Assembly (NCBI RefSeq): GCF_054482595.1
Contig: NZ_CM137008.1
Reading direction: 5' to 3' (one strand)
DNA length: 64,000 nucleotides
The notes under the pieces were generated by a model that was not told the origin of the DNA, did no database searches, and worked only from the letters and a program-made list of their open reading frames with translations. Made by a program: the position numbers and the translations under genes. Shown piece after piece: positions 23,012 to 23,079 of this stretch. Numbering within the stretch: the first letter of the stretch is position 1; each line of letters begins with the position of its first letter.

Positions 23012-23051
23012 CCCTTCCTCGTCGGGCCTAACGACGCGGAAGGGTTTTTTT
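23012..23051 (+). terminator. Strong intrinsic terminator immediately upstream of speB
   Basis: Nested stem cccttcc-tcgtcg...cgacg-ggaagg followed by TTTTTTT, ending about 28 nt before the speB ATG. Confidence 0.7.
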
Positions 23052-23079
23052 ATATCGACTTTGTAATAGGAGTCCATCC

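Follow-up and report, generated by a model that had tools for sequence, protein, structure and literature searches.

In the trp, his and pyrBI attenuators, a G+C-rich hairpin followed by a U run is found between the promoter and the start codon, and, as with intrinsic terminators in general, expression is by readthrough only and an RNA 3′ end is mapped within the U-tract. The leader of speB, the agmatinase gene of Escherichia coli, appears to resemble these systems in each of these respects. It is unlike trp, his and pyrBI in that neither a conserved antiterminator or anti-antiterminator nor a leader peptide was found, in that about 20 nt or fewer precede the hairpin, and in that the sequence of the hairpin is itself conserved. 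The HMP-PP (thiS) riboswitch, reportedly described in 2019 as an aptamer embedded in a terminator, is said to carry conserved nucleotides inside a plain-looking terminator stem that is easily overlooked, and in this it recalls the speB hairpin; unlike that riboswitch, however, the speB leader yielded no competing upstream pairing, and the resemblance may be taken as a lead. DapZ and MicL are small RNAs that are transcribed from their own promoter in the 3′ region of a neighbouring gene and share the terminator of that neighbour. The layout in E. coli K-12, where a promoter-like site follows the speA stop codon and precedes the terminator at which speA ends, would likewise give a short RNA sharing its terminator, but unlike DapZ and MicL the speB element is without a conserved seed and travels with the downstream gene speB rather than with the gene upstream.

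A spermidine riboswitch, which is a variant of the SAM-I class, has been found upstream of speB, speE and speD in a different organism (Salvail et al. 2023, PMC10853860). It is akin to the present locus in that polyamine genes, including that for agmatinase, are placed under an intrinsic terminator in the leader, and it exerts end-product feedback at the level of termination (PMC10853860). In that riboswitch a large SAM-I-type aptamer of several helices is combined with an antiterminator (PMC10853860), whereas the speB leader contains a single hairpin and gave no match to an Rfam riboswitch. SpeB carries out the last step of the route from arginine to putrescine, and its leader is a likely control point for polyamine synthesis.

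The site itself has been listed before. Naville and Gautheret (2010; Genome Biol 11:R97, PMC2965389 Table S4) included it, for E. coli, Salmonella and Shigella, among conserved premature terminators that correspond to no known element; it stands there under speB cluster HBG311682, which is of type ‘a’ (orthologous genes only). Their entry concerns the same site as that studied here and is an attenuator candidate in a list; it covers four species and comes with no promoter, mechanism or experiment, unlike the promoter and conservation analysis presented below (PMC2965389). Term-seq of E. coli K-12 has placed an RNA 3′ end, classed as ‘orphan’, at position 3083827 on the minus strand of MG1655 (Adams et al. 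2021, PMC7815308, suppl. files 1 and 3), and the sequence flanking 3083827(-) is that of the speB-leader hairpin and its T run (PMC7815308). The existence of the terminator is already on record, then, whilst its working has not been described, and a text search of the literature for a promoter, leader or small RNA of speB returned just papers on Streptococcus speB or irrelevant ones. The element is probably a promoter-proximal intrinsic terminator or attenuator, previously listed but uncharacterised.

The hairpin and U-tract ahead of speB

The window referred to throughout is the whole 64,000-nucleotide stretch of DNA that was analysed, and the region of interest within it is the E. coli metK/speA/speB/loiP/tktA neighbourhood, as judged from its open reading frames and from identical annotated records. 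The speB gene (agmatinase; Pfam PF00491) occupies 23080-24000 on the plus strand, as indicated by the open reading frame and by annotation in identical E. coli records. Ahead of it, also on the plus strand, lies a terminator hairpin at 23010-23046 that is supported by folding, by a consensus fold and by counts of pairs. The 5′ side reads AACCCTTCC (23010-23018), T (23019) and CGTCG (23020-23024), the loop GGCCTAA (23025-23031), and the 3′ side CGACG (23032-23036), C (23037) and GGAAGGGTT (23038-23046); the outer stem is formed between 23010-23018 and 23038-23046, the inner stem between 23020-23024 and 23032-23036, and a 1x1 U·C mismatch sits in the stem at 23019/23037. The 15 pairs have a minimum free energy of -24.4 kcal/mol, as against -11.8 +/- 2.4 kcal/mol for shuffled sequences (z = -5.2), with 0 of 200 shuffles folding as stably, and the hairpin persists when the whole leader is folded. 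It was not listed by a simple terminator scan, likely because such a scan disallows the U·C mismatch within the stem. A run of seven T residues (TTTTTTT, 23045-23051, plus strand), the U-tract of the RNA, overlaps the 3′ end of the hairpin and is followed by 28 nt (23052-23079), including the Shine-Dalgarno sequence AGGAG at 23068-23072, before the speB ATG at 23080. The first-pass annotation had put the end of the hairpin and T7 run at 23051 and the ATG at 23080, with about 28 bp between them, and these coordinates are exact in the sequence; its start for the hairpin, 23012, falls 2 nt inside the stem.

The Term-seq end is situated 30 nt upstream of the MG1655 speB ATG (3083797), which corresponds to window position 23050, the sixth T of the tract. 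The locus thus combines a stable G+C-rich stem, a 3′ U-rich tract and an RNA 3′ end in vivo, the features by which intrinsic terminators are defined, and the strong terminator of the first-pass annotation is borne out to the extent that termination in K-12 is not negligible in vivo (PMC7815308). The end was called in M63 glucose and not in two LB conditions, that is, in one of three conditions (PMC7815308); this confinement to M63 is a hint of condition-dependent readthrough, although a 3′ end alone gives no termination efficiency. A 60-nt query centred on the hairpin was found once each in 5425 of 5426 E. coli genomes, always at a site without annotation, and gave one match in the 64-kb window even with three mismatches allowed; being single copy per genome, the hairpin is not a repeat of the REP/ERIC type. 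In MG1655, no feature, RNA included, is annotated between speA and speB.

Between the U-tract and speB, a weak hairpin is predicted at 23057-23074 (plus strand; GACUUU/GGAGUC, -5.1 kcal/mol in folds), enclosing the Shine-Dalgarno sequence. An equivalent pairing, GA(C/U)UUU...GAGGUC, is predicted in most genera, which may be why a CGAC motif is conserved about 12 nt ahead of the ribosome-binding site.

Conservation of the promoter-like site and the hairpin

The 28-nt gap is devoid of a recognizable promoter. A consensus scan gave no plus-strand promoter-like site in 23012-23079, in keeping with the earlier claim that a sigma-70 promoter cannot fit between the T run and the ATG, and the hexamer TATATC at 23051-23056, considered as part of a promoter in the T run and gap, was rejected since its final T is absent, it is not conserved and the scan was blank. 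A putative speB promoter is found upstream of the hairpin instead, with a -35-like TTGATG at 22954-22959 and a -10-like GATAAT at 22977-22982 (both plus strand), the former detected by consensus scan and corresponding to a near-invariant CTTGAAC in 73 loci, the latter by scan and multi-locus comparison within a near-invariant GGCGATAAT. The arrangement TTGATG-17-GATAAT at 22954-22982 matches the consensus at 9 of 12 positions, and transcription is predicted, from promoter geometry, to start 5-7 nt past the -10 at the A residues 22987-22989 (plus strand). The scan alone was not above chance (8 sites in 5 kb against 5.1 expected).

For comparison, 80 speB loci were collected from about 20 enterobacterial genera. 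The general form across these genera is TTGAAC-N17-GATAAT followed by a near-invariant hairpin: a TTGA-type -35 and GATAAT are found upstream of the hairpin in about 81 of 84 loci, with a spacer of 17 nt in nearly all and 16 nt in two, and CTTGAAC and GGCGATAAT are near-invariant against a spacer and flanks that are just 30-50% identical. The K-12 counterpart is TTGAAT-17-GATAAT, in surrounding sequence that is about one third different from that of the window. Distances vary more: 35-42 nt separate the -10 from the inner stem, and 24-45 nt the T run from the ATG. Three loci (L011, L012 and L049) have the hairpin without a canonical promoter.

Conservation of the hairpin reaches the level of individual letters. 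Across 81 loci, 25 of the 33 positions of its core are invariant and the mean pairwise identity of the block is 0.95, whereas the four-fold degenerate sites of speB in the same genomes (82) have an identity of 0.56 with 0 of 119 invariant, from which it follows that neutral divergence is saturated. In an alignment of 70 distinct enterobacterial leader sequences (A1), the 15 hairpin pairs are formed in 99.3% of cells, as compared with 38-60% when the 3′ partner columns are slid. Nine of the 15 pairs never vary; one flips between U-A and A-U in 20 sequences, and another runs through C-G, U·G and U-A, the commonest change being from U-A to U·G. Since U·G wobbles would be C·A mismatches on the opposite strand, the constraint acts on the plus-strand RNA. 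One sequence has lost a base where stem meets loop, and otherwise the inner stem CGUCG/CGACG is constant; apart from Edwardsiella, in which one loop base is deleted, the loop ends GG..UAA do not change either. A mismatch is retained at the U·C position in every sequence (U·U in one), and a T run of 6-9 nt is present in 87 of 87 loci. The 5′ segment of the leader (A1 columns 1-21) is the least conserved part, with zero invariant positions, and in Enterobacteriaceae some 20 nt of poorly conserved, unpaired RNA precede the stem. Comparison of these loci shows that the promoter hexamers and the hairpin sequence are under purifying selection, and indicates that the hairpin is conserved as sequence, beyond its pairing. 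On the basis of consensus and conservation, we infer that the site at 22954-22982 is the speB promoter. A promoter-terminator pair left nearly unchanged across Enterobacterales, where neutral sites are saturated, offers a specific target of about 100 bp.

Proposed readthrough into speB and the competing explanations

With no promoter in the gap and a promoter-like site upstream, speB transcripts must read through the hairpin, and readthrough would be the only route to speB; the proposal in the first-pass annotation that speB is reached by readthrough or from a promoter inside or upstream of the terminator is upheld, as regards readthrough and an upstream promoter, by the promoter-free gap and the conserved site at 22954-22982. 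Older literature, from 1990 and 1992, reportedly found that speB is read from two promoters, its own and, as part of a polycistronic message, that of speA. The former must, in K-12, sit in the speA-speB intergenic region unless it is inside speA. The same literature is said to have described speB as induced by agmatine and repressed by cAMP by an unknown mechanism, and to our knowledge neither response has ever been explained mechanistically.

The locus is probably best understood as an intrinsic (Rho-independent) terminator within the speB leader, with speB expressed when polymerases that started at the speB promoter and in upstream genes read through it. The proposed order is a sigma-70-type promoter (22954-22982), about 20 nt of RNA, the hairpin with its U7 (23010-23051), 28 nt containing the ribosome-binding site, and speB. 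RNA polymerase that set out at the speB promoter, or that enters from the upstream gene, which is the lipoprotein gene in the window and speA in K-12, would either stop in the U-tract or continue into speB, and a stop after initiation at the speB promoter would release an RNA of about 62-65 nt, given the predicted start. The element would thereby have two jobs, ending the upstream transcript and setting, and probably modulating, the level of speB transcription. Partial readthrough would allow the same element to end speA (K-12) or lipoprotein transcripts yet permit expression of speB, and would explain the monocistronic and polycistronic speB messages reported in the older literature.

The hairpin is linked exclusively to speB, as is shown by comparison of genomes in which the upstream gene differs. 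It adjoins speB whether the gene upstream is speA, the lipoprotein gene, another gene or a hydrolase gene; the last is the case in Salmonella, where speA is not adjacent and the hairpin precedes speB after an unrelated hydrolase gene, the promoter-like site there being different and less clear. A scan of metagenomes for the exact 22-nt hairpin core gave 80 loci: speB follows immediately in 77, one locus runs into the end of its contig, and two are chance matches without a T run; since the exact core was required, apparent invariance in distant taxa partly reflects detection. In about 18 of these loci SpeB is 77-80% identical to the query, and TTGCAG-N17-GATAAT is found 21-34 nt before the inner stem. 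These distant relatives are soil Enterobacterales with a promoter-hairpin spacing of about 22 nt as against about 37 nt in Enterobacteriaceae, and as they keep the order with a different spacing, the order of promoter, hairpin and speB is older than the spacing. Edwardsiella and an Erwinia-like genome have both promoter and hairpin in the same layout. Both elements are missing from Morganella, Providencia and Sodalis; just 13-59 nt lie between speA and speB in Morganella and Sodalis, where an internal promoter is also lacking. Promoter and hairpin are jointly present or absent in most sampled genomes, the exceptions being Salmonella and the three loci without a canonical promoter.

This linkage bears on a different explanation, an unlikely one, in which the element is a small-RNA gene whose product of about 62-65 nt acts in trans, leak-through into speB being secondary. 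A conserved promoter close before a strong hairpin whose U run measures 7-9 nt would suit such a gene, as would the RNA 3′ end in vivo and a conserved hairpin sequence, which many small RNAs have. Long U-run terminators are typical of Hfq-binding small RNAs. The would-be seed segment is, however, the least conserved part: a search of A1 columns 1-21 for a conserved single-stranded seed gave no invariant position, and in the distant relatives the segment would amount to only a few nt, as estimated from the 21-22 nt distance. The element is moreover never found away from speB, belongs to no Rfam family and coincides with no annotated RNA in MG1655.

It is quite unlikely that the hairpin is the ordinary terminator of the upstream gene, with a non-functional promoter-like site and speB expressed solely by leak-through. 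The hairpin is indeed the first terminator past the upstream stop codon in both K-12 and the window, the promoter scan of the window was at chance level, and in L049 (Enterobacter) the speA stop codon is followed directly by the hairpin with no promoter. This account leaves unexplained why -35 and -10 should be near-invariant in about 81 of 84 loci when their surroundings are at neutral divergence, and why the hairpin should stay with speB as its context changes in Salmonella and others. Ordinary terminators drift by compensatory change, whereas nine of 15 pairs and the loop are fixed here, and in the window speA already has a separate terminator. A speB-specific promoter was also reportedly described in 1990.

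The geometry in the distant relatives, where the predicted start is just a few nt before the stem, and the persistence of the hairpin in the whole-leader fold would fit a 5′-proximal stabilising stem-loop or processing site on the full-length mRNA, with little termination in vivo; a short 5′ end ahead of a stem is the geometry of protective 5′ hairpins. We consider this quite improbable, given that a U-tract of 6-9 nt, for which a stabiliser has no need, is kept in every locus, that the in vivo 3′ end lies exactly within it, and that the ~20 unpaired nt before the stem in Enterobacteriaceae weaken protection of the 5′ end. A DNA operator, at which a dimeric transcription factor would bind the inverted repeat as a roadblock downstream of the promoter, is extremely improbable: the 33-bp near-palindrome is invariant in sequence and would span roughly positions +20 to +57 of the predicted transcript, but its variation is asymmetric as DNA, with RNA pairing kept by U·G wobbles on the plus strand only, the T run beside it is itself conserved and coincides with an RNA 3′ end, and no ARG box, PUR box or CRP site consensus was recognised by eye.

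If the element is an intrinsic terminator in the speB leader, as favoured here, its regulation may rest on the hairpin itself. The invariant inner stem, U·C mismatch and loop suggest that a sequence-specific partner tunes termination, candidates being a protein, an RNA, agmatine or a polyamine; as a generic terminator needs no letter-level invariance, a specific reader is the most economical reading. Induction by agmatine, reportedly described in the literature of the 1980s-90s, and feedback by polyamines are the obvious physiological signals. In its fullest form, which is rather doubtful, the proposal is that the hairpin is the sensor, with a partner reading the invariant inner stem, the U·C mismatch and the GGYYUAA loop so that termination reports the status of the pathway. 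That partner could be a dedicated RNA-binding protein, or the RNA could contact agmatine (the substrate) or putrescine or spermidine (the end products) directly. Were this true, it would supply a mechanism for the induction of speB by agmatine and would make this one hairpin a minimal regulatory RNA with no catalogued counterpart.

Classical attenuator parts were sought in the leader with negative results. The consensus fold of the 70 leaders gave the terminator hairpin alone and no antiterminator pairing, single-sequence folds gave unrelated small stems and likewise no antiterminator, and an Rfam scan of 19000-25500 (E <= 1) gave nothing at the hairpin, its matches elsewhere being to the REP-like naRNA4 and, by chance, to P31. 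Comparison by eye with the ARG box, PUR box and CRP site turned up nothing convincing or conserved. Read in frame, window positions 23013-23030 encode ...L-P-R-R-A-stop, with two Arg codons in the 5′ arm and the stop codon in the loop; a leader peptide ending LPRRA* was rejected, there being no conserved start codon, no start after the -10 in many genera and no TAA in Edwardsiella, and the occurrence of this reading beside an arginine-pathway gene is treated as a coincidence. Having no antiterminator, leader peptide or Rfam family, the attenuation could be constitutive, which is fully possible; in that case the element would be a well-conserved dosage-setting terminator of local interest only.

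Neighbouring genes and minor features of the locus

The gene directly upstream of the element in the window is an open reading frame of 243 aa annotated ‘lipoprotein’ (22213-22944, plus strand), which is not part of the element, and its transcripts also meet the speB-leader hairpin. The first-pass annotation had treated this gene as an insertion and had proposed that it would influence agmatinase expression, to which its transcripts may contribute. The K-12 speA-speB intergenic region, which is 137 bp long and lacks the gene, holds the hairpin, T run and 28-nt spacer exactly as in the window together with a homologous promoter, high identity between the two arrangements starting at window position 23003; lipoprotein insertion as the origin of the arrangement is refuted by K-12 and by other genera, and strain-specific gene insertion can be set aside as a false lead. 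Among complete E. coli genomes, 3543 of 5426 (~65%) have the lipoprotein arrangement, the others, including K-12, having speA and then speB, and homologues that are 66-75% identical occupy the same slot in some species of Citrobacter, Enterobacter, Kluyvera and Klebsiella. From this distribution, the gene is probably an old, patchily kept neighbour and not a recent insertion. The predicted protein has a signal peptide with a lipobox-like LLAGC; it matched no Pfam family, and its sole NCBIfam match, to the signal region, is meaningless.

The speA gene ends at 22067 and is followed directly by a terminator-like hairpin with a T-rich tail (22084-22126, plus strand; hairpin 22084-22117), found by scan and folding, that forms 15 pairs, is A+T-rich and has a folding energy of -17.8 kcal/mol (z = -4.4). 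This second hairpin is confined to the lipoprotein-carrying arrangement and is missing from the K-12 intergenic region, where speA, having no terminator of its own, relies on the speB-leader hairpin. A faint Rfam match to P31 on the minus strand at 22085-22134 (E = 0.14) looks like chance.

The promoter region exists in two versions (window 22945-23002; L001 1669-1727). One, TTGAAG/TTGATG...TTTTAAGGCGATAAT, goes with the lipoprotein gene in Escherichia, Citrobacter, Enterobacter, Kluyvera and Klebsiella species, and the other, TTGAAC...ATTAACGGCGATAAT, goes with its absence, so that each promoter version seems to be tied to the presence or absence of the gene. The 17-nt spacer (window 22960-22976; L001 1687-1703) holds a short inverted repeat, the letters of which covary between genera: CCGCT...AGCGG in K-12, GCCT...AGGC in the window, CCGTA...TAACGG in Enterobacter and GTCAAAA/TTTTGAC in L076. 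A regulator might bind this repeat, or it might fold as a stem in the RNA transcribed from upstream. Conservation is likewise seen in a GGC immediately 5′ of the -10 and in a G+C-rich stretch 3′ of it.

Additional stems accompany the hairpin in some lineages. In the distant relatives (L127, L099, L102, L165 and similar loci) a second G+C-rich inverted repeat, GCGGGCC..GGCCCGAC, lies between the T run and the ribosome-binding site, and in Edwardsiella (L087) a strong extra stem (-23 kcal/mol) is found between the T run and speB. Two database records are out of place: the speA-speB locus of L076 (CACSKA010000005.1) is typical of Enterobacteriaceae although the contig bears the label Chryseobacterium sp. 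18061, and an agmatinase labelled Vagococcus sp. (P0007) is 88% identical to the E. coli enzyme; both are probably contaminated or mislabelled. Downstream of speB, REP-type repeats occupy window positions 24030-24184, between speB and loiP, and match Rfam naRNA4 at 53.5 and 37.7 bits, below the gathering score of 59.5.
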